Assembly (NCBI GenBank): GCA_030167145.1
Contig: CP126532.1
Span: 930,001 to 962,000, forward strand
Source: Ktedonobacterales bacterium
Lineage (GTDB): Bacteria; Chloroflexota; Ktedonobacteria; Ktedonobacterales; JADMIN01
DNA length: 32,000 bases
Direction of reading: 5' to 3'
Below, in pieces: positions 1,242-30,246 of this stretch. The position numbers were made by a program, and so were the translations under genes. The notes beneath the pieces were generated by a model. That model did no database searches and was not told the origin of the DNA. It saw only the letters and a program-made list of their open reading frames with translations. The stretch's first letter is position 1; every line of letters begins with the position of its first letter.

Positions 1242-3131
1242 ATGGGAGGTAGGGCAAACGTGGTAGCAAGTAGTAGTGCGGGACGTACACCTGAGCGGAT
1301 GAATGGCGCCCAGCCGGCTGGCGATGAGATGGCCGAGAGCATGGAGGGCCGCCACGAGGCTGGCAAGCGCGAAGTTGATATGTATATCCGCACCTACCAG
1401 ACGCTGCTGCGCAGTTCTGGTGAGGTGGGCCTCAAAGCGCTGGTCCAGGCGCACTACAATATTGATTCTGTGCTCCATCCCGAAGCGCGCTCCAGCGAGC
1501 CGGATATGTCCGCGTTTATCTATACCGTCCTGCGCCTCCCCACCGCGATTCTCAACTGCTCGCGTGTCCTGCTCGGTCAATCCGAAGACGTGTTTGCCCA
1601 GCACGGCTTCCAGGTCGAACAGTGGCAAGCCGTCACCGCCTCCGCCCGCAGGCGCAAATGGTTCTATGATGGCAAGAGCACCCTGGCCGCATTCATCGCC
1701 AGCGTCAGCGACACCGACGACATCGTGCCCACCCTCGTCGCCCTCCAAATCGAATGGAACAAGTTCCACTGGCTGCTCAACGCCGACGCTACGACGATGC
1801 AGTTGCTTGAGAGCCGCGTAGACCGTTCCTCTCCCGTGTACGCTGAAATTACCAAGGTCGTTCGCGAACGCCTGCACATCACCGCTGAAGACTGGCGCCG
1901 CCTCGAAGTCATCTGGGGCGATCACGTCTGGACGAATCTGCTGGCCATTGGTCGCGAGCGCAAAAACTTCGCTCTGCGGATGCTGGGTGGCTCACATGTA
2001 GGTTTCGTGCGCGCCACGCGCAAATGGTGGTCGCCGGTTAGCAAGTTGATCGAAGACCTGCGCCTCAGCCGCCGCCCCGTCTACTTCGTCTCTAGCAACA
2101 CCCATAGCCTCGCCAATCTCTTCTCTGGCACGGCGCTGCGGCGCGAAGACGAACTGGTGCGCTTCGCCACCACTGGCGCTGATGCGCTGCTCGCCGAGGA
2201 GTATCGCAAGCTGAAAGAGGGCAAAGCGCCGGGCAACTGGCAAAACTTCCTCTATTACGCCGCCCGCGAATACCAGCGTACCGCCGCTGGTCAGGGATTC
2301 TCGCGCAGCCGCCCCGTCGAAGAGCAGGAGCGCGGCATCTGGTACATTGGCTCGCGCTTTGGCCTGGAACTTGATGTGCAGGTGATTGACCTCGCCAAGC
2401 TCCACGCGCAGGATCTCGATCCGCGCATCCGTGTTCCCGGCATCGAACGCATCGCCGAGAGCCGTGGCGTCATCGTCAACATAGATTACCCGCTCGGCAT
2501 GGCGGCGTACCGGATTCTGCGCGAAGTGCTGGAAAACAACGTGCAGGTCAAGGGCATCTACATCCTTGGCAAAGCCGCCACACTCAACGGCAGCATCGGC
2601 GATGTAATGATCGCCAACGTCGTGCTCGACGAGCATAGCCAGAACACCTACTGGCTAGACAACTGCTTCAGCGCTGCGGATATCAGCAAGAATCTGGTCT
2701 TCGGCGCGGTGCTCGATAACCAGAAGGCCGTCTCCACCAAGGGCACATTCCTGCAGAATCGCGCCTATCTCGACTTCTACTACCGCGCCAACTACAGCGT
2801 CGTCGAGATGGAAGCCGGTCCGTATCTGGATGCTGTCTACGAGAGCCTGTACATGACACGCTACCCGACCAGCGAGAACATCAACTTCGCCAAGCTGCCG
2901 TTCGACCTGGGCGTCATCCATTACGCCTCCGACACACCCTATACGCGCGGCAAGAACCTTGGCGCGGGCAGCCTCTCGTACTATGGGATGGACGCGACCT
3001 ACGCCACCACCATCGCCATCGCGCGGCGCATCCTCGACTACGAAGTCGGCGGGGCGCGCAGCGACGCCGTGGCACGCGCCGAGGCTCTGAAAGTGCGGCG
3101 CGGCGGGCAGACCGCCACCGCCCGCTCCTAG
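1242..3131 (+). CDS. hypothetical protein with C-terminal nucleoside phosphorylase / AMP-nucleosidase-like (PNP_UDP_1 fold) domain
   Basis: 629-aa ORF. The C-terminal ~230 aa (VIVNIDYPLGMAAY...IYILGKAATLNGSIGDVMI...VVEMEAGPY) resembles the phosphorylase superfamily. I do not recognise the N-terminal ~400 aa. The start is uncertain: in-frame ATGs at 1242, 1299, 1329, 1341 and 1380, none with a clear SD. Confidence 0.6.
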   Translation: MGGRANVVASSSAGRTPERMNGAQPAGDEMAESMEGRHEAGKREVDMYIRTYQTLLRSSGEVGLKALVQAHYNIDSVLHPEARSSEPDMSAFIYTVLRLPTAILNCSRVLLGQSEDVFAQHGFQVEQWQAVTASARRRKWFYDGKSTLAAFIASVSDTDDIVPTLVALQIEWNKFHWLLNADATTMQLLESRVDRSSPVYAEITKVVRERLHITAEDWRRLEVIWGDHVWTNLLAIGRERKNFALRMLGGSHVGFVRATRKWWSPVSKLIEDLRLSRRPVYFVSSNTHSLANLFSGTALRREDELVRFATTGADALLAEEYRKLKEGKAPGNWQNFLYYAAREYQRTAAGQGFSRSRPVEEQERGIWYIGSRFGLELDVQVIDLAKLHAQDLDPRIRVPGIERIAESRGVIVNIDYPLGMAAYRILREVLENNVQVKGIYILGKAATLNGSIGDVMIANVVLDEHSQNTYWLDNCFSAADISKNLVFGAVLDNQKAVSTKGTFLQNRAYLDFYYRANYSVVEMEAGPYLDAVYESLYMTRYPTSENINFAKLPFDLGVIHYASDTPYTRGKNLGAGSLSYYGMDATYATTIAIARRILDYEVGGARSDAVARAEALKVRRGGQTATARS

Positions 3132-9070: not shown

Positions 9071-9182
9071 CCCGAAGCACCCTTTCACGTACCGGCACTT
9101 CGGCAAGAAAAAGACAATGCGACCACGAGCCAAAATGCCCGGTGTCGCATTCACCGTAATGGTATTTACTTGTCCAACTGGG

Positions 9183-9255
9183 TGGAGGTGAGGGGGATCG
9201 AACCCCTGACCTCAGCATTGCGAACGCTGCGCTCTCCCATCTGAGCTACACCCCC
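9183..9255 (-). tRNA. tRNA-Ala (anticodon CGC)
   Basis: The reverse complement folds by hand as GGGGGTG-TA-GCTC-AGATGGGA-GAGC-G-CAGCG-TTCGCAA-TGCTG-AGGTC-AGGGG-TTCGATC-CCCCT-CACCTCC-A. It has the G3:U70 alanine identity pair and anticodon CGC. The 3' CCA is not exactly encoded (genomic ACCCA). Confidence 0.93.
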
Positions 9256-9329
9256 AGGTGCCTCAGTAGTATAGCACGGCGTGCGGTGCGTTGCAAGTGG
9301 GATGTGTGGAGAGTGAGTTGGTAGCGAGC

Positions 9330-9355
9330 GGGCGTCCTCCGGACGCCCCTACGGG
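9330..9355. repeat. dispersed hairpin repeat GGGCGTCC-TCC-GGACGCCC-CTACGGG (copy 1)
   Basis: Perfect 8-bp stem immediately 3' of the stop of the 635-aa ORF (stop at 9349-9351). Near-identical copy at 23964-23989 in opposite orientation; a compensatory variant lies at 16868-16891. Confidence 0.8.
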
Positions 9356-11256
9356 TGGGGCGTCGCGGTGGGCGTGGCATGCGCGGGGACGAGCGGCAGG
9401 TGCGACGCGAGCGGCGTGAGCAGCAGCAGGCAGTACGCGGCGGCGGCGATGCCCAGCACGAGATAGATGCGGCGCGACCACGTGAAGTAGCGGTGGAAGC
9501 GTGCGGCTTCGGGGATGGGCTGCGCGCGCATGGCGGCGCGCTCCTCGGCGGTCAGCTCGTGGAGGGTGGCGAGGCGCTGGGTTAGCTCGTGCTCCTGCGC
9601 GTCGAACTGCTCGTGGCGCGAGCGCAGCACAAACAACTGGATGAAGACCAGGAAGTAGAGCGCATAGAGCGCGAAGGCCAGCCGCTGCACGGCGAGGCTT
9701 TGCGCGGGCTGGAGCAGCGCCGCCACCATCACGCCCAGCGCCAGTAGGATGCCGCGATACACGTTATCCACCAGATCCGAAGTGAGATCGGCGATGGCTT
9801 TGCCCACGCTGGCGACATAGGACGCGACGGCATCCAGCGCCTGCTGGCGCGCGGTGAAATACTGGTCGGTCTGATGCTTCAGATAGAGGCGGAAGGTGGC
9901 GTGGGCGGCGGGCAGCGCGCGGCGGGCGGCGCGCTCCACCTCGGCGAAGGCGATGCGCGTGCCAGCCGGAAACTCGCGTGCCAAACAGTCGCGGGCGATG
10001 TAGAGGCGGTCGGGCGCGGCGCTGGCGTAGGCCCAGGCGGCGAGGGCGGAGAGGACCTCACCCTCGGCCCCTTCCCCATGGTGAGAGGGGGGGACAGAGA
10101 AGCGGCCAGCAGTGGCCGATGTGGCCGATGTGGCCGATGTGGCCGCGGGGGCAGTTGCCGATTCTGCCGATTTTGGCGGTTGCGTGGGGGTGAATGACGG
10201 GATGTGGCCGGAGCTGGGGGGAGAATTTTCGCCGTTTTCGCCGCTGATCGTGGCATCATGTGGGAGGGTGAGCGTGCGGATAGGTGTGCCCGCGAAGCGT
10301 AGCAGCAGCGTGTCATCGCTGGCGCGCTGGACCGAGGTGGCGAGGTACATCGCCGCGAGCGATTCGCGCATCGCTGCCAGCGGGCGCGCGGTGGCATCTA
10401 GGCCAGGCGCGCGGGAGGTGAGCGCGAGATGCTCTGGCGTGAGGCTACACGCGGGGATGGTCCAGATGGATTCGGCGTCGCGCAGGTGGCGAATCTCGTC
10501 CGCGCGCTCCTGAAACTGCCGCCAGCCGTCGTGCGAAATCTCCAGCCAGTCGGGGGCGTCGGTCTGCGCGCCTATGACTTCGAGGGCAGGGCTGGCGAGG
10601 TAGCCGCTGGCGTCGCAGAGGACTATCACCGCGCGGCCACCTGGACGGGCGAGGCCCTGCTGCTCCCAGAAATCGAGTGCGGTGATGGTGAGGATGGGAT
10701 AGAGGGCGGACGACTGAAAGTAGACGGCGACAGTGGTGGCTGCCAGGGCATCGGGCGTGCCGAGGTGGCCGGGGCGGGTGGCGAGCAGTGCGCGGGCGGC
10801 GGCGATGGCGCGCGTCTTGGCGAGCGCTACACGGATGTTCACGCGCAGATCGCTGCCCTGGTTCGCCGCTGTGGCCTGGGCGTCGGCGACGAAGCGCGCG
10901 AAGGTGGCGGATGGCGCGGCATCGGCGCGTAGCGGCACAATCTCTTGTTCATCTTCCAGGCCCAGGCCAGTAAGCTGAAGGTCTAACTCCAGGTCCGCGC
11001 CGCAGAGCGCGAACCAGCGTTCAACTGTGTCGGGCGGCAGCGCGGCAAGCTGATCCAGTGGGATGCTGGCCTGCGCTTCGAGGCGGTCTATCGCCTCCAA
11101 ACTTGCCATGCGTTCGGCGTCAAGCCCACAGGCTGCGCCGATCTCGGTGACGGTCGCGCTATAGGCGCGCAGTGTTGCCAGCGGCTGCGCGTCCGCGTCG
11201 TCGTGCCGTGTGGCGGTCGCTGGAGTTGTCGTGCGCCGCGATTTCTGGCCGCTCAT
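9349..11256 (-). CDS. hypothetical 635-aa protein: large soluble N-terminal region plus C-terminal triple-TM anchor
   Basis: ATG 11256 is preceded by GGAGGTGA and overlaps the upstream stop (ATGA). Three hydrophobic segments near the C-terminus: ILLALGVMVAALL, LAFALYALYFLVFIQLFVL, IYLVLGIAAAAYCLLLL. A low-complexity insert (…ATSATSATSAT…) is encoded by a 9-bp tandem repeat. I recognise no catalytic motif. Confidence 0.75.
   Translation of the reverse strand: MSGQKSRRTTTPATATRHDDADAQPLATLRAYSATVTEIGAACGLDAERMASLEAIDRLEAQASIPLDQLAALPPDTVERWFALCGADLELDLQLTGLGLEDEQEIVPLRADAAPSATFARFVADAQATAANQGSDLRVNIRVALAKTRAIAAARALLATRPGHLGTPDALAATTVAVYFQSSALYPILTITALDFWEQQGLARPGGRAVIVLCDASGYLASPALEVIGAQTDAPDWLEISHDGWRQFQERADEIRHLRDAESIWTIPACSLTPEHLALTSRAPGLDATARPLAAMRESLAAMYLATSVQRASDDTLLLRFAGTPIRTLTLPHDATISGENGENSPPSSGHIPSFTPTQPPKSAESATAPAATSATSATSATAGRFSVPPSHHGEGAEGEVLSALAAWAYASAAPDRLYIARDCLAREFPAGTRIAFAEVERAARRALPAAHATFRLYLKHQTDQYFTARQQALDAVASYVASVGKAIADLTSDLVDNVYRGILLALGVMVAALLQPAQSLAVQRLAFALYALYFLVFIQLFVLRSRHEQFDAQEHELTQRLATLHELTAEERAAMRAQPIPEAARFHRYFTWSRRIYLVLGIAAAAYCLLLLTPLASHLPLVPAHATPTATPHP
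10112..10147. repeat. 9-bp tandem repeat GTGGCCGAT x3 plus one degenerate unit, inside the 635-aa ORF
   Basis: Read directly at 10112-10120, 10121-10129 and 10130-10138 (identical), then 10139-10147 GTGGCCGCG. It is in-frame and encodes an Ala/Thr/Ser repeat on the minus strand. Confidence 0.9.
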
Positions 11257-12398
11257 GCGCCGCTCACCTCCTTCAGCGTCAGCGACGACAGCACCAGTTC
11301 ATAGGTGTTGCCGGTCTTGCGGATATTTTTGGGGTCGAGTAGGGTGGTGAGCCGGTCGGCGCGGACCCGCAGCCGCGCGCCGCCGTCCAGTTCAAGCGTC
11401 ACGTAGTTCAGCAGCGGCGCGGCAATCGCGGCATCCACATCGAAGCGATCTACGCGGCCATCCAGCCCTTCGCTCAACGACCCGGCCAACTGTTCGACGA
11501 GGCTGGCGCGGAGCGCAGGCTGCGTGGGCAGTGCCAGCGCGGCGAACGGCGCGAGCACCACCTGCGGCGCGCTGAGCACGGCGCGGCGGGCGGCGTAGAA
11601 CTTGAATAGCTCTTCGGGGTTGAGCCGGTCGCGGTGGGCGTCGAGCCAGAGGTCGGTGAGATCGAGGAAGCCGCGTGTCAGGCGGCGCGGCGAGGGCGCA
11701 AGCGCGACGCCGAGGAAGCCTTTATAGAAGAACGCGGCAACCCCCTCAGCACGCGGGCCAGCCTGGTTATCCAGCAGCGTCACGTCGAATCCGCCGCTGG
11801 TGGCACTGGCGGTGATCAGAGCGCACTTTTGCAGTTGGCGGTCCTCCGGCAGCAGATTATCCGCGCGCTCGTAGACCACGCGCATCCGCCCGTCCACCGG
11901 AGCGAAGCGGCGGGCCAGCCGTGTCTGTGGGTCGAGCTTGAGCAGCGCCACATGCCGCTGTGCGTCGCCATCTTCGCGGTAGACCAGTGCGGCGAAGTCG
12001 CCAGCGGCGATGTTCTTGGGCTTCATGCGCGCGAAGAGGCGCTGGGCCAGGCCTTGCGAGGCGGTGACAAAGGAGGTGTCATCGTCCAGCAGGGCGCGGC
12101 ATGCCTGGGCTACCTCGCCATCGGTCTCGGCGAACGTGCCACACCAGTCGGCGCGGCTGGCGGTGGCGGCGATATAGGAGACGAAGAGCGGATGCGCCTC
12201 GGCGGAGAGCGTGGCAATCTCTTGCGATACCACGAGTTGCGGCGTCTGGTTATCGAGTTGGTGCTGGATGATGCGCTCGATCTGCACTGCGCCTGTCGCG
12301 CCGGGAATCGTCGCCGCTGGCGCGCTCTGCCCCACAGAGGCGGCTATCGCGCCACCGCCGCGCCCACCTCGTCCCTTCGCCAGTTGTGGGTTCGCCAT
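11253..12398 (-). CDS. NA37 (NdpA/YejK)-like nucleoid-associated-type DNA-binding protein, divergent
   Basis: 381 aa from ATG 12398, which has a very strong SD (GGCGAGGAGGGTGGAGGG). The ORF-track start at 12509 lacks one. Family-like landmarks: IERIIQHQL near the N-terminus, HVALLKLD, LQKCALI, AAFFYKGFLG. It has an RGG-rich N-terminal tail. The assignment is by eye only. Confidence 0.6.
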   Translation of the reverse strand: MANPQLAKGRGGRGGGAIAASVGQSAPAATIPGATGAVQIERIIQHQLDNQTPQLVVSQEIATLSAEAHPLFVSYIAATASRADWCGTFAETDGEVAQACRALLDDDTSFVTASQGLAQRLFARMKPKNIAAGDFAALVYREDGDAQRHVALLKLDPQTRLARRFAPVDGRMRVVYERADNLLPEDRQLQKCALITASATSGGFDVTLLDNQAGPRAEGVAAFFYKGFLGVALAPSPRRLTRGFLDLTDLWLDAHRDRLNPEELFKFYAARRAVLSAPQVVLAPFAALALPTQPALRASLVEQLAGSLSEGLDGRVDRFDVDAAIAAPLLNYVTLELDGGARLRVRADRLTTLLDPKNIRKTGNTYELVLSSLTLKEVSGA

Positions 12399-12593
12399 CC
12401 CTCCACCCTCCTCGCCACACCACGCCGCGCCTGCCTGATAGTGTATCATTCCGCACGCGATTGCGCTGGACGGCAATCCGGCGATGGGAGCAATGGGCAG
12501 GATTGGCATATGTTTTGCGACGCGGCGAGATGGACAAAAGTCACTAGCCAGTCTGTCTACACACTGGCACCTTCCCGTTACCTGTGGCGTAAC

Positions 12594-12664
12594 TCTCTAT
12601 AGCGAACCCGCACAGGCGGGTTTCGCGGCCGTAGGCCATCCAGGCGCGGTTTCAACCGCCCGCT
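12594..12664. repeat. structured intergenic repeat, copy A (inverted relative to copy at 16844-16936)
   Basis: The 21-bp core GCGCGGTTTCAACCGCCCGCT (12644-12664) is the exact reverse complement of 16844-16864. The adjacent hairpin module GAACCCGCACAGGCGGGTTTCGCGGCCGTAGG matches the reverse complement of 16885-16926 with a few mismatches and indels. Confidence 0.75.
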
Positions 12665-12965
12665 ATTCAGTGGGCTAGCACAAGAGCGCATTTCGTTACC
12701 TGCTCCGCGATGTCTCGTTTTTCGCTGTGAGGGACGCAAGAGAAGGCGTGTTTCACGGCGGGCGACGCGGTGTGAGAGGTGTGAGATTCCGGTGGAGTTT
12801 GGTGTCTGCGAGTATACGCTGGTCTTCCGGCGGGCAATCGAATATCGGGGCGCACGCGCCGCGAAACGAACATGGGAGGTCGCGCGGCCACATCTGGGCC
12901 AGCAGCGGCCCCACAGTACCGCGCGCAAGACGAAGCGGACGCCGGTGGCGCGCGAGGTGGCGCAG

Positions 12966-13178
12966 ATGCTAGTAGTGCCGGTCTATTCGACACTGGCGCT
13001 GGATCCACTTTCGTATGAGCATTTCCTGAAGGAGAGCGGCGTGCTGAGCGAGGCGCTGGCGCTGCTGGCGCGGCTGACGCTCAAGGATGCGGCGGCGGTG
13101 GAGACGACGCGGCGCCAGATTCACTCGCTGGTGATGGCCGCCGAGGTGCAGCACATCGTAGATCGCATGTCGGCGTAG
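12966..13178 (+). CDS. hypothetical small protein (70 aa)
   Basis: ATG 12966 lies within a longer ORF. G/C is strongly enriched at third codon positions, consistent with coding in this genome. No recognisable motif; convergent with hicB. Confidence 0.35.
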   Translation: MLVVPVYSTLALDPLSYEHFLKESGVLSEALALLARLTLKDAAAVETTRRQIHSLVMAAEVQHIVDRMSA

Positions 13179-13188
13179 GATAGTAAAG

Positions 13189-13410
13189 TTAGGCGCTGGC
13201 GGGCACATCGTGGTGTTGCGGCTCAGGCACGGGGCGGCCATCTTCGCGCGCAATCTCAATCCATTCTCCGATGATGACCTGGGCGTTGGCAATAGCTTCC
13301 GCAGGCGTCGCGCCATCGGCCATGCACCCTGGCAGCTCTGGCACTTCAGCGAGCCAGGCGTTATCTGGCTCGCTCCATGTCAGGATGATGCGGTACTTGT
13401 ACTCAGGCAT
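13189..13410 (-). CDS. hicB: HicB-family antitoxin (type II TA)
   Basis: 73 aa. YRIILTWSEPDNAWLAEVPELPGCMADGATPAEAIANAQVIIGEWIE is the HicB N-terminal (RNase H-like fold) signature. AGGGGG SD is present. The gene starts 20 nt after the hicA stop. Confidence 0.85.
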   Translation of the reverse strand: MPEYKYRIILTWSEPDNAWLAEVPELPGCMADGATPAEAIANAQVIIGEWIEIAREDGRPVPEPQHHDVPASA

Positions 13411-13430
13411 CGTGTACCCCCTAATTCTCT

Positions 13431-13727
13431 CTAGCTGATCTTCGTCTGGCCGTACTTCTGGAGCAGCTTGCGGATCTGCCGCACCTCAAAGGGTTTCGCT
13501 TTGCCATCGCGCAACGGTTGAATGTTGACGATTTCAGGTTGTCCCCGCTTGCGAAAGATGTGGTGATCGCCTCTGATGCTCTGGATGTAGCCCAATCGCG
13601 CAAGCAATCCGCACAGGCCATCAAACGGGATATTCGCATCGGCCTTGCCGCTCAGCACCTGACGTAGCAGCTTCTCCCATTGTGCCACCTGCGCCTCACT
13701 TTCCGCATGCCCCACCGAACATCGCAT
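13431..13727 (-). CDS. hicA: HicA-family mRNA interferase toxin (type II TA)
   Basis: W-KLLRQVLSGKADANIPFDGLCGLLARLGYIQSIRGDHHIF...KAKPFEVRQIRKLL matches the HicA/YcfA pattern, including the conserved G-(S/D)-H-H. The start is uncertain (ATG 13727 or the upstream 13796). Confidence 0.8.
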   Translation of the reverse strand: MRCSVGHAESEAQVAQWEKLLRQVLSGKADANIPFDGLCGLLARLGYIQSIRGDHHIFRKRGQPEIVNIQPLRDGKAKPFEVRQIRKLLQKYGQTKIS

Positions 13728-13823
13728 TGGGTTCAGCCTACACGTTGATTGGAGTGCTCTGACCCCTAGGAATAGATAGCCTATTATCCCCGGCAACGGC
13801 CCACCATCGCCCGCCTACCGCCG

Positions 13824-16481
13824 CTACTCCACATCGCACCCCAGCCGCCGCGCCGTCTCCCGCGCCTGCGCCTCATCCGGCACGCCCATCGCGTGGTAGA
13901 TCGCGATAGCCTGTTGCAACAGCGCGCACCCCTCGTCACGATTGCCCCGATGAAGAATGAGCAGCTCCCCGCAGGACATTGCTACTCCTGCGTAGTTCGC
14001 TGCATCCTGTACCTCATTCAAGACGATTAGCCCTTGCCGGTAATAAGCTTCTGCTTCCTCCCATTGCTCCCGCGCTTTCGCAATGACTCCAAGCTGTGCA
14101 AGAACCATACCCTCACCTTGCCGACTCTGCACTTCACGGGCTATCACCAGGCTTTCTTGAAAGTAGCGTTCGGCGTCGTTGAACTGGCCCCGCCTTAGCG
14201 CAATCTGGCCCAGGCCAGACAGCATGACGCCTTCACCGTGCTGGTCCTGTGCCTCGCGGCGAATCGTCAGGCTTTGCTGAAAGTAGATTTCCGCCGCATC
14301 TAATCGCCCCTGGTGTTGGACGAGAGAACCCAACTTGCCCAGCGCCACGCCTTCCTCGCGGGTAGCTCCTATATCCTGCATGATACGGAGATACCGCTCA
14401 AAATTGGCTTGCGCGCCTGCCAGATCGCCGCGCAGCCTCAGGATGTCGCCCAGGATGCCCAGTGCCACCCCTTCACTACGCAGGTCATGTTCCTCACGCC
14501 AGGTGGTCAAGCTTTGATTGATGTACTCCTCGGCAAGGGGCACTTTCCCTGCGACCAGTAATGCGGTCGCATAGGCAAGCTGGAGACGCGCAGTGAACAG
14601 GTCATTATCCCGCTGACCAGTAGCAATGGCGATCCGCTCGGCGGCGTCGATACCCCAGGGCAGGCAGCGCAGACTGTTATAGGTGCGCCAGCGGTCGCGC
14701 CAGTAGTTCCGCATGCCCATACAGAGGCGCGCGACCAGCCTATCGCGGGCATCGTCCGGCGCGGAGGCGTGTGCCCAGTCGAGCATGCCCGCGATGTTCT
14801 CGGCATCGGGCGCTTTCGCTGCGTCGGGGGTGGCGATGGCATAGTCGGCGTAGAAGGCGGCGAGGGCAAGGGCGGCGGCAGCGGCGGTAGCGTCGTCAGT
14901 CATATTGGCGGCCAGGGCGCGCAGCAGCGGATGCAGGCGCAGACGTTCGCGGTCGCTGCCCTCTGGCGTCGTGGTGTCGAGCGATGTGTCGAGCAGGGCG
15001 CGGCGCACCAGCAGGTCTACGGCGTCCTCCGGCGGCGCAATGCCTAGGCCAGCGGCGATGGCGATGGCGGCGTTACGGCCGAATTCGGGCGTCGGAACGA
15101 CGGCGAGCGCGGCGAAGAGTCGGCGGGCGTCGGTGGGTAGTGTGCGGATACTACGCAAGAGCGATTCCTCCACAGCGCGCTGGCCATCTGATCCGGTGAT
15201 GCGTAGCGGTTGTGTCTCTAGCTCGGCGGCGAACTTCGCAAGGTCGCGCTTCAGGTCGGCGGCCTCGGCAGCGGCCAGGCGCACCGCCAGCGTGTGGCGG
15301 TCCAGCGCGGTGATGATGCGCTCGACGGCGGCGCGGTCGGTGGGGGAGAAGGCGTTGGCGGAGGCGAGGCCATAGGCGCTGGCGAAGAGGTCGCGGGCGT
15401 CGCTTTCGGGCAGCAACGCCAGCTCGCGGCGGGCGTCTGGCGCGACGGGTAGCCCATGGCGCGCGGTCAGCAGCACCGGCACGCCGGTCTCGCGCAGCGG
15501 GGCGAGCAGCGCGTTGGCGTCGAGTTCCGGCTCGACGTTGTCGAAGACGAGCAGCGCATCTTTGCCGCGCAGCAGCCGTAGCGCGGCGGTGGCAAGCTGC
15601 GGCGCGGTGGCGGAATCGGGCAGGATATCGGCGCTGGCCCCTGGCGGCACGAAACGCAGCAGCGCGTCGCGCAGCACGGCCAGCGCATCGGACTTGCCCA
15701 GGCAGTCGGCGACGACGACGCCATCATGGAAACGGCCTTCGTCATAGAGGCGGCGCACGGCGACGCCCGCCAGCGCGCTCTTGCCGATGCCGCCCAGCCC
15801 CGACACCGCCGTGATGGCGGTGACGGAGCCGCCACCGGCGCGGAGCCGCGCCATCGCCCAGGCCAGGTCGTCCACGCGCCCCACGAAGCGTTCGGGGTTG
15901 GGCAGCGCGGCGAAGTCCAGTGGCGGGCCGAGCGCGATGGTGGCGGGGCGCTCGTCGGTCTTGCCCCGGCGGATGGCAGCGAGCAGGTCGGTGTAGGCGC
16001 GGCGGTCGGTGCGCGCGTCGTTGCCAGGGAGATAGGTGATGTACTGGATCAGGCCAAGCAGTTTGGACACATCGCAGGTCTGGCGCAGCACAGGGATGAT
16101 CACCATCGGTTCGGCGCGAGTACGGTCATTCTTCTCCTGAATGGCGAGGCGTATCTCCTCCTGCACCCACGGCGAGGCGACGGCATCTGGCGTCAGCAGC
16201 ACCACGACGACGTTGCGCGCGGCGATCTCGCGCACGATCTGATCCATCCAGTAGTCGCCCGCCACCAACCCGCCGGTCCACGTCTGCTCCCCCGGCTGCG
16301 GCGGACGGCCCAGCACGTCGTACCAGACCGCGCCGGGGCGGCCCACTTCGGCAGCGAGGCAGTGGGCCAGGGCGATGCCGAAGTCGTTGTCGCGCTCGCT
16401 GTGACTGATGAAGACGCGGGGAATGAAGCGCGCGGGCCGTGTCTGGATGGCGGTGGTCGTAGAGGTGGCAGGGGTGGTCAT
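13824..16481 (-). CDS. TIR - NB-ARC (STAND NTPase) - TPR protein, 885 aa
   Basis: N-terminal TIR: VFISHSERDNDFG...VVVLLTPDAVASPWVQEEIRLAI. NB-ARC: P-loop GLGGIGKSALAG, Walker B ALLVFDNVE, RNBS-B-like VLLTARH. The C-terminus carries about five ~40-aa TPR-like repeats (GVALGxLGxxxxxxGxxxxAxxYFQQSLxIxRE). Confidence 0.88.
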   Translation of the reverse strand: MTTPATSTTTAIQTRPARFIPRVFISHSERDNDFGIALAHCLAAEVGRPGAVWYDVLGRPPQPGEQTWTGGLVAGDYWMDQIVREIAARNVVVVLLTPDAVASPWVQEEIRLAIQEKNDRTRAEPMVIIPVLRQTCDVSKLLGLIQYITYLPGNDARTDRRAYTDLLAAIRRGKTDERPATIALGPPLDFAALPNPERFVGRVDDLAWAMARLRAGGGSVTAITAVSGLGGIGKSALAGVAVRRLYDEGRFHDGVVVADCLGKSDALAVLRDALLRFVPPGASADILPDSATAPQLATAALRLLRGKDALLVFDNVEPELDANALLAPLRETGVPVLLTARHGLPVAPDARRELALLPESDARDLFASAYGLASANAFSPTDRAAVERIITALDRHTLAVRLAAAEAADLKRDLAKFAAELETQPLRITGSDGQRAVEESLLRSIRTLPTDARRLFAALAVVPTPEFGRNAAIAIAAGLGIAPPEDAVDLLVRRALLDTSLDTTTPEGSDRERLRLHPLLRALAANMTDDATAAAAALALAAFYADYAIATPDAAKAPDAENIAGMLDWAHASAPDDARDRLVARLCMGMRNYWRDRWRTYNSLRCLPWGIDAAERIAIATGQRDNDLFTARLQLAYATALLVAGKVPLAEEYINQSLTTWREEHDLRSEGVALGILGDILRLRGDLAGAQANFERYLRIMQDIGATREEGVALGKLGSLVQHQGRLDAAEIYFQQSLTIRREAQDQHGEGVMLSGLGQIALRRGQFNDAERYFQESLVIAREVQSRQGEGMVLAQLGVIAKAREQWEEAEAYYRQGLIVLNEVQDAANYAGVAMSCGELLILHRGNRDEGCALLQQAIAIYHAMGVPDEAQARETARRLGCDVE

Positions 16482-27048: not shown

Positions 27049-30000
27049 TCAGAAGCCGAACGTTACCACCGTATTCTGGTCCAGCGGGAGGTTGTCATAG
27101 CCCTTCAACGGCTTCTTCCCTTGCAGCAGCGCCGCCCACTGGTCTTCGCTGGTGATCGTCACGTTGTCCAGGTTGGGGTTCTTGGCGTGCAGTTGCGACG
27201 TATCCACGTAGACCGTGAGATAGTTGCCGAGCTTCAGCAGAAAGTCGCCGCTTCCAGCCTGCTTCTCCACCAATTCGGTATACGTCCCGTGCCCGTTCGC
27301 GTCCATCGTGAAGGCATGTGGTGTGTACCACGTGATGTAGATGTTCTGCGTATGCGGGCTGGCATTGAATGGGCATCCCTGATCATAGTCGCCGCCTGGT
27401 CCGGTACCCTGCCAGGTGCTGAAAAAGTGGCGTGTTTCGACTTGAAGGGACGGATCAGTCTCTGTTCTGCAGGAGACCACCAACCCTCCAAAAACCATCG
27501 AACGCCCAGGGACATCACTGATCGTCGTCGGTTGCTGAAATTCGTGAACTGGCGGACTATCAGTGCAATCTACAACGATTGCAGCCTGATAATTTGAGCA
27601 CCCATCTGGTGTCCAGAAGTTCGCAGGTATAAATCCAGAGTACCCCAATATTGTCGCGTCCCCAGGTAGATAGGTTCGCTGCATGTCAACGTAATCTTCC
27701 TGGGGAACTTCCTTATTAAATACGTCACCTTGCTTATAGTAGGTAACCGATATCTGCAAGCGATGGAGCGCGCCACCGTTGGGCAGCAGTGTGATATAGT
27801 CGGTCTGCTTCTCTGTCACGAACTGGTTGGCCTTGTTGCCGCCATCGTTGGTATCCACCACGAAGAAGCCGTCGCCATTGCCGCGTGAGATCTCCGATGA
27901 CAGGCCAAGCTGCCGCAGGATTAGCTCGGCGTGTGGATCGCTGAAGTAGAGTTGCAGATCTTTGCTCTTCAGCGCCTGTTCACCCACCTTCAACACTGCC
28001 TTGAGCTGGCTGCCATGCATCTTTTTGACCCGCGCCAGCAGCGCCTGTGCGAGATCATGCGTGAATTGCTTACGTGGTGCAGAATGCGACGTTCTATCAA
28101 GTTGGTACTTATGGATCAGCGCCTGCATGTTCTGTGCGGTCACCTGCTGGTTGTTGTAGTTCGGCAGTATGATTGGCCCTGTAGCCAATAGCAGATCTTC
28201 GATCAGTACCGGCGTGAAAGCGATGACACCCTGCAACTGGCCACCGCCGGGAATCGAGTTCGGCGTATCTTCTACGATGCGCATCGCCGTCTGCGCATTG
28301 ATGGGGAAGTCCGGCGAGAGTCCAGAGTCACGTAAGCCCCATTCAAACTGGCAGCTAAAATTTCGGTACGGCCACCACCAGTAGTAATTCGGCGGCTGTG
28401 GCCCGCCCGCATAACAGTCGGTGCCAGGTGGGGCCTTGCCGAAAACAGCTTGATAATAGGCGCTATCCAAATTGTAGGTATCGTCCAGGGCGAGCGGGTG
28501 CTTCGCATCCTGGCGCCCGCCAGTCAGCGTGAGGATGCCATAGTTACCCATGAAGCCGCCCGCCGGGCGTAGCTCGGTGCGGTCCATGGCGATTACCAGA
28601 TAGTTCGCTGGCTGGCCGATGCCGAGCAGCGCGGGCACGCTATCCAGCAGCGTCGTCATCTCCGCCAGGATCGGCGGGGCCTGCGGCAGCAGCGAGAGGT
28701 ATTTGCTGAACTTCTTCAGCGAGCCGTTCAGCGCGTCCGGGCTGAGTTGGTGATAGGCTTCCAGCGCATCCTGCACGCGCACCGAGGCGTCGGCCAGCAC
28801 CGCCCGCGCCTGGGTGATGTCGTTCATCGTCAGCCCTGGCGAACTGGAGTCCGCCGCCAGCGCGCCGCCTTGGAGGGGCGTCAGCACCGTCTGCGCCACT
28901 TGCAGCGCCTCGTCGGCGGTGGCGGTCAGGTCGAAACCGATGCGCGTCAGCAGCCGGTAGTTGCGCACCGTCGGGTTGACGGCGGCCAGTGGCGCGCCCA
29001 CCACGTTCATCGCGCTGTTGATCTCATAGAGGTCGCGCGTCAGTCCGTCCACCTCGCTCTGCGCCGCCTTCAACTTCTCCGCGTTGAAGAGCGCCGACTG
29101 ATCTGCGAGCATCGTCTGCACGTTGTTGATGCGCCGCAGCGCGTCGGTGGCGTCGTAGCCCAGCCGCAGAATCGGCACAATCGGCGCGCAGCACGCCAGG
29201 ATGAAGCCGAAGAGGAAGAACGCCAGCATCGCCGCCGCCGCCGGGCGCTTGCGCAGCAGCAGCCGCGTGCGCGCCAGCCGCCCCATGCGCGGATGAACCG
29301 CGCCAAGCTGCGCCAGTGTGCCGAGCGAGTCTTCCAGCGCGCCATCGCCGCGTCTGCCCCGCCTGCCGCCGCCCCACTCCTCTTCGTCGTCGTAGCCGCC
29401 CAGCGATGGCTCATAGCCCGTGGCCCAGCCGCTATCCCATGTCCCCGTCTCGGAGCTGGCGTCGTAGCTGCCGGTGGCCCAACCGGTGTCCCATGTGCCG
29501 GTGCCGAAGTCCGCATTCCACTCGTCGTCATCCCAGGTATCGGGCGCGCGGCGTCGCGGCGGCTGACCGCGCCCACCTCCGCCACCACCGCCCGCGCCGC
29601 TGCCACGTGGAGCGCGGCTGCTTCCGCCACGCGCCGCCCCGTCACGCGGGCGCGGCTCGCTCCGGCGCGGGCGTTCGTCGCCGAACTCCGGTTCGTCGGG
29701 GACATCGAATGGCGCTTCGTCGTTTTCGTCCCAGGCTTTCAGTTCGTGCCGGTCGAAGTCCGAGGCGCGCCACTCGCCCGCACGCGGCGCGCGGATATTT
29801 TCGGCGGCCTTGCGCAGATTGTCGCCGAGGCGGCGCACCTGTCCGGTGAAGGCATGCAACGTATTGCGGCGGACCGGGCCGCCCTGCCGTGCGCGCGAGA
29901 GCAATCCATTGCCGCCATTGCCGCTATTGCCGCTATTGCCGCTATTGCCTCGTGCGGAGCCATCAGCGCCACCGCCAGAGGATGTAGGCGGTCGCGTCGC

Positions 30001-30246
30001 GCCGGGGTCGTTCTGCTTATTCTCAGGCGACGAGCCGCCCTCGCCGCCAGCATAGCGGCTCAGCAAACCACCACCCTGGCGCGCGCTGTTCGGATCAGAC
30101 GGCTGCGGACGCCGGGGCGCGGGATTCTGGCGTGGTCCGCTGGCCGCGCGTGGCGGAGCGCCGCGCCTGTCCTGTGCCCGGTCGTTCTGGTTGCCGTCAT
30201 CCATGCTCATGGCGTCGCTCGTTTCTTCGCCTGAAATCCCTTGCAT
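27049..30246 (-). CDS. DUF4012-domain membrane protein (1065 aa) with ~330-aa disordered Arg/Gly/Pro-rich cytoplasmic N-terminus
   Basis: Single TM segment: AAAMLAFFLFGFILACCAPIVPIL. The extracytoplasmic region contains LLGIGQPANYLVIAMDRTELRPAGGFMGNYGILTL, which matches the DUF4012 hallmark (NxAE(L)RxxGG(F/L)xGxYG). The N-terminus has GNSGNS repeats and W/acidic motifs. Confidence 0.8.
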   Translation of the reverse strand: MQGISGEETSDAMSMDDGNQNDRAQDRRGAPPRAASGPRQNPAPRRPQPSDPNSARQGGGLLSRYAGGEGGSSPENKQNDPGATRPPTSSGGGADGSARGNSGNSGNSGNGGNGLLSRARQGGPVRRNTLHAFTGQVRRLGDNLRKAAENIRAPRAGEWRASDFDRHELKAWDENDEAPFDVPDEPEFGDERPRRSEPRPRDGAARGGSSRAPRGSGAGGGGGGGRGQPPRRRAPDTWDDDEWNADFGTGTWDTGWATGSYDASSETGTWDSGWATGYEPSLGGYDDEEEWGGGRRGRRGDGALEDSLGTLAQLGAVHPRMGRLARTRLLLRKRPAAAAMLAFFLFGFILACCAPIVPILRLGYDATDALRRINNVQTMLADQSALFNAEKLKAAQSEVDGLTRDLYEINSAMNVVGAPLAAVNPTVRNYRLLTRIGFDLTATADEALQVAQTVLTPLQGGALAADSSSPGLTMNDITQARAVLADASVRVQDALEAYHQLSPDALNGSLKKFSKYLSLLPQAPPILAEMTTLLDSVPALLGIGQPANYLVIAMDRTELRPAGGFMGNYGILTLTGGRQDAKHPLALDDTYNLDSAYYQAVFGKAPPGTDCYAGGPQPPNYYWWWPYRNFSCQFEWGLRDSGLSPDFPINAQTAMRIVEDTPNSIPGGGQLQGVIAFTPVLIEDLLLATGPIILPNYNNQQVTAQNMQALIHKYQLDRTSHSAPRKQFTHDLAQALLARVKKMHGSQLKAVLKVGEQALKSKDLQLYFSDPHAELILRQLGLSSEISRGNGDGFFVVDTNDGGNKANQFVTEKQTDYITLLPNGGALHRLQISVTYYKQGDVFNKEVPQEDYVDMQRTYLPGDATILGYSGFIPANFWTPDGCSNYQAAIVVDCTDSPPVHEFQQPTTISDVPGRSMVFGGLVVSCRTETDPSLQVETRHFFSTWQGTGPGGDYDQGCPFNASPHTQNIYITWYTPHAFTMDANGHGTYTELVEKQAGSGDFLLKLGNYLTVYVDTSQLHAKNPNLDNVTITSEDQWAALLQGKKPLKGYDNLPLDQNTVVTFGF
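29907..29951. repeat. 9-bp tandem repeat (CCATTGCCG/CTATTGCCG) x5 inside the DUF4012 gene
   Basis: Read directly. It encodes GNSGNSGNSGNGGNG on the minus strand. Confidence 0.9.

Follow-up and report, generated by a model that had tools for sequence, protein, structure and literature searches.

The 32,000-nucleotide window analysed here corresponds to positions 930,001 to 962,000 of the forward strand of contig CP126532.1 (assembly GCA_030167145.1), from a Ktedonobacterales bacterium of the phylum Chloroflexota. It encodes a YejK/NA37-like nucleoid-associated protein (gene A) which is translationally coupled to a large membrane-anchored protein of an unannotated family (gene B), and a third conserved gene (gene C) is divergent from A. 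This arrangement recalls PANGU, a group of two-gene operons combining a YejK-like nucleoid-associated protein with an effector (bioRxiv 10.64898/2026.04.06.716658, April 2026). The reading that A and B form a nucleoid-associated sensor and a membrane effector of the PANGU type II kind, with a partner from an undescribed family, has in our judgement about an even chance of being correct. It is the best supported of the readings considered, because of the strict coupling of the two genes, the architecture of their products and the existence of experimental precedents.

Both genes of the pair lie on the minus strand, gene A between positions 11253 and 12398 and gene B between 9349 and 11256. Translation from the ATG at 12398 yields a 381-residue product for A, and the product of B has 635 residues. 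The stop codon of A and the start codon of B overlap in the sequence ATGA (11253–11256), the mark of translational coupling, and each start codon is served by a strong Shine-Dalgarno sequence, namely GAGGAGGGTGGAGGG immediately 5' of the ATG at 12398 and GGAGGTGA located 7 nt ahead of the ATG at 11256. Indeed, the open reading frames, their overlap and the two ribosome binding sites are all as the initial annotation of this DNA had described them. The exact pair of proteins is found on a 5.07-Mb contig of a Ktedonobacterales metagenome-assembled genome (MAG) under the identifiers OJF49_000840 and OJF49_000841. 

The coupling is not particular to the window. All the loci encoding a B homologue that were inspected, 20 distinct ones of the Ktedonobacterales type and 11 distinct distant ones, carry an NA37 gene directly upstream and on the same strand (31/31). 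The pairing is kept down to approximately 20% identity in B, the two genes usually overlapping or lying no more than 3 nt apart. A 4-nt overlap at the junction is seen in six loci with gene calls, L002, L005, L006, L009 and L036 among them, and most of the other junctions have either a gap of 1–3 nt or an overlap of 8–22 nt. Gaps of 114 and 239 nt in L004 and L008 may result from mis-called start codons. These results support the view that A and B are a conserved, translationally coupled functional pair, and in this respect the pairing proposed in the initial annotation is borne out across genomes. Its description as a two-gene module has to be amended, as in Ktedonobacterales there are three conserved genes, in the order C-A-B.

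The assignment of A to the nucleoid-associated proteins, also put forward in the initial annotation, is sustained by both sequence profiles and predicted structure. Residues 44–256 (positions 11631–12269, minus strand) match the Pfam NA37 family with an E-value of 3.8e-20, covering profile positions 1–213 of 325, and the protein also matches PHROG 1974 (E 2.8e-21). The first 25 residues form a disordered, RGG-rich tail. The AlphaFold2 model of A has a mean predicted local distance difference test score (pLDDT) of 84.7 and a predicted template modelling score (pTM) of 0.83, and its only significant Foldseek match in the PDB is Escherichia coli YejK (9be2; E 8.3e-10 over 367 columns); by sequence, A matches no solved structure. 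Together, the Pfam match and the fold match of the model over 367 columns indicate that A is a full-length but highly divergent member of the YejK family. We considered whether it could be a YejK orthologue and rejected this, as A scores 12.6 bits (E 0.056) against the NCBIfam YejK equivalog NF001557, far below the cut-off of 341 bits, and the best BLASTP segment with E. coli YejK has 23% identity (26 of 114 residues). The two proteins thus have in common the Pfam family and a fold over the full length, and they differ in genetic setting: no membrane partner is coupled to yejK in E. coli, where the adjacent yejL and lapC are divergently transcribed genes unrelated to it. Close relatives of A amount to at least 155 clusters, and all the named ones are from Ktedonobacterales. 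On plasmids, a tblastn search with A returned only stand-alone NA37 genes of Clostridium plasmids, one of which (H1) lies among phage-type replication genes, and a search with E. coli YejK returned only yejK-like plasmid genes.

Gene B presents a distinct situation, as its product matches nothing in the Pfam, NCBIfam, PADLOC and PHROG libraries of hidden Markov models (HMMs), has no counterpart among solved structures by sequence and, when its model (pLDDT 82.3, pTM 0.71) was submitted to the fold search that identified A, has no match in the PDB or in BFVD. The architecture of the protein is nevertheless well defined in the model. Residues 22–334 (positions 10255–11193; all positions in B refer to the minus strand) make up an ordered cytoplasmic α/β domain with a pLDDT mostly above 90 and with conserved motifs in the alignments, which in the window is mildly acidic (net charge −16, pI 4.7). 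It is followed by a disordered low-complexity insert, residues 335–396 (10069–10254), which is rich in proline, serine, threonine and alanine, contains a short SAT repeat and has a pLDDT below 50. The length of this insert is variable, being 8–14 residues in most homologues, 88 in P0018 and 45 in P0023. Residues 397–495 (9772–10068) form a helical region with the motifs WAY..(A/S)PD(K/R)L.IAR and YF..RQ.A.D.V..Y, and this is the best-conserved stretch over the wider family. The membrane module (9397–9762) is evident from Kyte-Doolittle hydropathy and from continuous helices in the model, and comprises the transmembrane helices TM1 (residues 499–518; 9703–9762) and TM2 (residues 525–546; 9619–9684), a charged cytoplasmic helix of about 48 residues (547–594; 9475–9618) and TM3 (residues 595–620; 9397–9474). 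Clusters of arginine and lysine follow TM2 and precede TM3, which would be compatible with an inside N-terminus and an outside C-terminus. The initial annotation had described a large domain devoid of known motifs, a low-complexity insert and three terminal helices with a charged linker, and the profile searches, the model and the hydropathy analysis agree with it.

The family to which B belongs is large. An exhaustive profile search retrieved 501 cluster representatives at E ≤ 1e-3, a number that is to be taken as a lower bound (at least 501), and 99 at E ≤ 1e-30. The scores fall sharply at around 1e-55, a step that sets the Ktedonobacterales type apart from a group of distant proteins with 510–700 residues and the same layout. 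In a word-indexed search B has 26 close clusters, and again all the named ones are from Ktedonobacterales; the same type of search with a diverse B alignment gave only 7 matches, none of them named. Nine distant homologues have no significant Pfam match, and a tblastn search of plasmids with two of the distant proteins found nothing. Four distant members (P0198, P0203, P0204 and P0217) carry after the third transmembrane helix an additional conserved domain of about 130 residues, with no Pfam match and with the motifs GY.D.R, PD.TA and a conserved cysteine; given its position beyond TM3, it is presumably located outside the cytoplasm. We also observed that one MAG, SMAG_U1423, has two different B homologues on two contigs (L021 and L024, with 38% and 45% identity to B of the window), which could be a second copy or a mixture introduced by binning.

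The initial annotation stated that no described system has this pair of genes, and this is now outdated, as two studies report a comparable arrangement with anti-phage activity in E. coli. In type II PANGU the YejK-like protein is Pag2A and the effector is Pag2B, which has an N-terminal acidic, DNA-mimicking domain that binds the nucleoid-associated protein, named DMK, and a C-terminal transmembrane domain. The operon protects E. coli from phage T4 by abortive infection and both genes are required; Pag2A departs from the nucleoid upon T4 infection, as the phage degrades the host DNA, and the N-terminal domain of Pag2B is bound with a dissociation constant (KD) of 19 nM, the mode of Pag2B activation being left open (bioRxiv 10.64898/2026.04.06.716658). 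The pair studied here has several of the features by which such operons are recognised: A is a YejK-like (NA37) protein, it is encoded first, its partner is of a different family and is tightly coupled downstream in the same operon at less than 40 bp, and the three hydrophobic helices of B constitute a C-terminal transmembrane domain. By description, Pag2B and B are alike in having a soluble N-terminal domain followed by a transmembrane region, and some members of both groups are found beside restriction-modification, toxin-antitoxin or integrase genes. There are also clear differences. B is longer (635 residues) and contains both a disordered insert and a middle domain made up of helices, and the acidity of its N-terminal domain is not conserved. 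The Chloroflexota are not a phylum named in the preprint, which lists ten clusters of PANGU operons, mostly from Bacillota and Pseudomonadota (bioRxiv 10.64898/2026.04.06.716658). Moreover, the Ktedonobacterales version has the conserved gene C and resides in a syntenic chromosomal block.

The second precedent was reported independently by DefensePredictor (Science 2026, PMC13092281), in which the YejK domain is among the validated systems. The only unit with a YejK domain in its supplement is DS-17 of E. coli (D390), consisting of the YejK-like protein WP_000355468.1 and a 404-residue protein, WP_000150292.1 (PMC13092281). Here too the gene for the nucleoid protein comes first and that of the partner begins 3 nt later. 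From hydropathy and from reading of the sequence, the DS-17 partner begins with a soluble N-terminal domain, after which come TM1 and TM2, joined by a short loop, and, beyond a charged stretch of about 50–55 residues, one more hydrophobic helix; this last helix lies below the hydropathy cut-off and was recognised by reading the sequence. This is the same layout as in B, and the N-terminal domain is likewise mildly acidic (net charge −9). The DS-17 nucleoid protein differs from A in having an N-terminal zinc ribbon in place of the RGG tail, and the unit has no gene similar to C. DS-17 may be identical to PANGU-Ecu.

If A and B work in a comparable manner, A would normally reside on chromosomal DNA and would be set free upon degradation of, or severe damage to, the chromosome, for instance by phage nucleases. 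Free A would then bind B in the cytoplasm, through the N-terminal and helical domains of the latter, and this binding would switch the three-helix membrane module to a state that compromises the membrane, so that growth stops or the cell dies and the infection is aborted. In this scheme we infer the physical interaction of A with B, the trigger, the toxicity at the membrane and any anti-phage effect, while what A is, how B is built, the strict pairing and coupling of the two genes, the conservation of C and the synteny are shown by the analysis.

The third gene, C, was absent from the initial annotation. It spans positions 12792–13178 on the plus strand and encodes a basic protein of 128 residues (pI 9.9), of which the EYTLVFRR motif at the N-terminus and a domain of about 70 residues at the C-terminus are conserved. 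In all 19 Ktedonobacterales-type loci with enough flanking sequence C is found next to A, upstream and on the opposite strand; 24 columns of the C alignment are invariant, and a GGAGAGG Shine-Dalgarno sequence ahead of its start codon is conserved. Searches of Pfam, PADLOC, PHROG and the PDB gave nothing significant for C, the Pfam family PPDK_N being matched only below threshold (E 0.0048, 16.7 bits against a cut-off of 27 bits), and C was not detected in the distant A-B loci. It is probably a regulator of the module. The intergenic region between C and A contains a conserved non-coding element, GGGCTAG..N~20..CGTTACC..N~12..CTCGT (positions 12670–12725, plus strand), located 65–120 nt 5' of C. 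In an alignment of 15 loci its GTTAC and CGT segments are invariant, and k-mer enrichment singles out the same sequence, which has no family match in Rfam. A second repeated motif, GGTACC/AGTACCA, is seen closer to A in related loci. The element is a candidate promoter or operator of the divergent C/A control region, and may act there together with this motif. No LexA/SOS box was found between C and A, and a simple scan between B and the downstream tRNA gene found no terminator. An Rfam scan returned only the tRNA, with a weak match to the tmRNA clan, and a chance match to a CRISPR repeat (E 0.27).

The defence role proposed in the initial annotation is plausible, whereas its argument from a defence-island context turns out to be weak. 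All the neighbours it named are present in the window: a tRNA-Ala gene, endonuclease VII, a ParE-like toxin-antitoxin pair, HicB/HicA and a TIR-NB-ARC-TPR protein, with the HicAB and TIR-NB-ARC-TPR genes abutting C and the ParE-like pair located beyond the tRNA. They are of two kinds. The tRNA-Ala(CGC) gene identified with ARAGORN (positions 9179–9256, minus strand) lies directly downstream of B and is a conserved neighbour: a tRNA gene is found directly 3' of B in most Ktedonobacterales loci, its type varying with the sub-clade, as tRNA-Ala(CGC) also in L001, L003, L006, L011 and L015, tRNA-Ala(GGC) in L009 and tRNA-Arg(TCT) in L005, L017 and L022. Endonuclease VII is encoded downstream in four loci, the window included. 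As the tRNA and endonuclease VII recur beside the block, they are inherited neighbours and not signs of an island that brought A and B. The toxin-antitoxin and TIR genes, on the contrary, are specific to the window. Nearness to known defence genes (within 10 kb), which also enters the definition of PANGU-like operons, is thus seen in the window. Among the eight distinct Ktedonobacterales loci beyond the window for which gene-family tables are available, defence-like genes within 10 kb are seen only in L004, where HNH and Uma2 genes accompany a methyltransferase and a ResIII helicase, and to a weak degree in L001 (PemK), and the relatives mostly have a Dna2-like gene, rnpA-yidC or LeuRS-RelA alongside. 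Endonuclease VII and the toxin-antitoxin pairs are variable genes beyond the tRNA, as expected for a tRNA integration hotspot beside a stable block.

The Dna2-like gene encodes a protein of about 1000 residues combining a PD-(D/E)XK nuclease with an SF1B helicase, and is found upstream of C in 15 of 19 related loci. It is missing from the window, L001, L008 and L014, all of which have C-A-B. In the window its position (13189–16481) is taken by HicB, HicA and the TIR-NB-ARC-TPR gene, which suggests a replacement or an insertion; the loci compared include L002–L006, L009 and L011. The HicA-like open reading frame (13431–13796) is listed with 121 residues, and its true start is probably further downstream, because the HicA domain is confined to residues 61–110. 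HicA and HicB are upstream of the module both in the window (13189–13796, adjoining C) and in L029 (7426–8053, with a 198-residue gene between HicAB and NA37), which may be a coincidence. Further away, the window encodes at 1242–3131 a 629-residue protein matching DUF6909 almost from end to end (E 4.5e-237) and at 27049–30246 a 1065-residue DUF4012 protein; L008 also has a DUF4012 gene, some 4.7 kb downstream of its B gene.

The distant loci show a different behaviour. In the subgroup of P0243 the relatives are 60–79% identical and yet lie in unrelated contexts, such as an Eco57I-like restriction-modification gene with an excisionase and an integrase (L031), SSB with DUF3150, a QueE-like gene and an AAA ATPase (L039), lnt-prfB-metK (L036), or a 1438-residue protein with no assigned function. 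In this subgroup A and B travel together as a two-gene cassette, often in the company of mobile or defence genes, and several of the distant loci have defence genes nearby. Such island-like contexts speak for the defence reading, as do the HicAB, TIR-NB-ARC-TPR and ParE-like genes of the window. HicAB is also upstream of a separate, more distant B homologue, P0214 (L029/L030). The soil contig of L036 (positions 10001–13154) carries the apolipoprotein N-acyltransferase gene lnt, prfB and metK after B, a context that is absent in L043–L046 (62–79% identical), and its host is probably double-membraned, given the lipoprotein-maturation genes.

A number of observations weigh against a PANGU-like immune function, and several of them bear on the main rival reading, a less likely housekeeping role. 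The C-A-B-tRNA order is syntenic in about 20 Ktedonobacterales contigs at 38–66% identity, and when loci are compared in pairs the identities of A, of B, of C and of the Dna2-like gene are correlated (r = 0.80–0.92), so that the whole block is co-inherited; in Ktedonobacterales the locus has become fixed in the chromosome and is passed on vertically. The neighbours include core genes, as in L006 (rpmH-rnpA-yidD-yidC-jag and nuo genes) and L009 (LeuRS and RelA/SpoT), and in L036 the distant B homologue overlaps the start of lnt by 8 nt. No relatives were found among IMG/VR viral contigs with the distant B subgroup alignment A5, no toxin or pore family is recognisable in B, and A, B, C and two distant B homologues matched no system in PADLOC 2.0. 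Among 20 homologues the N-terminal domain has net charges between 0 and −22, and such non-conserved acidity lends little to the idea of DNA mimicry. Finally, an HMM built from 109 sequences of the B family scores the DS-17 partner, a probable proxy for Pag2B, at −2 bits, that is with no detectable similarity, and hhalign gives a probability of 0.8% for the two; as the two bona fide NA37 proteins run in parallel as a control also fail, reaching only 2.8%, this negative carries little weight. In a housekeeping role, B would anchor DNA-bound A to the membrane, or would sequester A to tune its binding to DNA, in chromosome organisation, segregation or DNA repair of filamentous Chloroflexota, C being a local regulator and immunity playing no part. 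What keeps this alternative alive is the core-like inheritance of a block that is not a foreign insertion (the Dna2-like gene in 15/19 loci, C in 19/19, a tRNA after B in most), the presence nearby of housekeeping genes and of DNA-metabolism genes (for endonuclease VII, a Helicase_C_3 protein and the Dna2-like helicase, among others), and an acidity of the B N-terminal domain that is not conserved; the lack of enzymatic or toxin motifs in B points the same way. It is countered by the fact that a membrane partner is not known to be needed by any housekeeping NA37 protein, E. coli yejK standing alone, that the distant cassette shifts between unrelated, island-like contexts, and that the only pairs of YejK-like and transmembrane proteins tested experimentally are anti-phage. 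In addition, the close family occurs, among the named matches, only in uncultured MAG lineages, and is therefore not demonstrably universal in the order. A related proposition, to which we attach slightly less credence, is that C-A-B is a lineage-wide housekeeping device with no immune function, in which the YejK-like protein would be physically coupled to a membrane protein of its own and so connect nucleoid and membrane; it would then represent the ancestral, non-defensive form of a partnership of which mobile PANGU-like cassettes made use later.

The recurrence of the Dna2-like gene upstream of C-A-B also raises the improbable scenario of a larger system for DNA damage or processing, made up with the helicase-nuclease and endonuclease VII, in which A would label DNA that is damaged or foreign, and B would hold the components at the membrane. 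Indeed, the helicase half of the Dna2-like protein resembles the PADLOC MkoA, MkoC and DpdJ helicases (E 1e-73 to 4e-27), although these matches are confined to the generic SF1B helicase core; endonuclease VII is downstream in the four loci mentioned, and a Helicase_C_3 gene plus a helix-turn-helix protein pair are located further upstream in L002, L004 and L009. The Dna2-like gene is, however, transcribed separately and is missing from all the distant A-B loci, and since C-A-B persists without the Dna2-like helicase and endonuclease VII, such a system is not required. The initial annotation had likened the pair to Kiwa, in which a membrane sensor (KwaA) is combined with a DNA-binding effector (KwaB). 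KwaA has four transmembrane helices and KwaB is a DUF4868 protein. Only the general logic of one membrane protein and one DNA-binding protein is shared, and the analogy fails as membership: neither A nor B has a PADLOC match at E ≤ 1, KwaA and KwaB included, and Pfam gives only NA37 and not DUF4868 for A. The gene order is reversed, and the topology also differs, B having a large cytoplasmic domain with three C-terminal helices against the four helices of KwaA. Membership of Kiwa was accordingly rejected, and we regard a Kiwa-like sensor and effector as extremely unlikely.

Descriptions of defence systems based on nucleoid-associated proteins date only from 2026 and concern mostly Bacillota and Pseudomonadota, and the combination of a YejK-like protein with a transmembrane partner was already known from them. 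The novelty here lies in the family of the partner, in the third gene, in the host phylum and in the inheritance of the locus as a fixed part of the chromosome. The theme is extended to Chloroflexota and other soil bacteria by a large unannotated family which has no Pfam domain or structural match and which is always coupled to a YejK-like gene. Since the same cassette is core-like in one order and a mobile island pair elsewhere, it offers a test case for separating defence from housekeeping functions. Should the housekeeping alternative be true, B would be the first physiological partner, and a membrane protein, found for the poorly understood YejK family, which would also gain a role. With high-confidence models at hand for both proteins, the A-B pair is a candidate for studying how a nucleoid-associated protein may activate a transmembrane effector of the type II PANGU kind.

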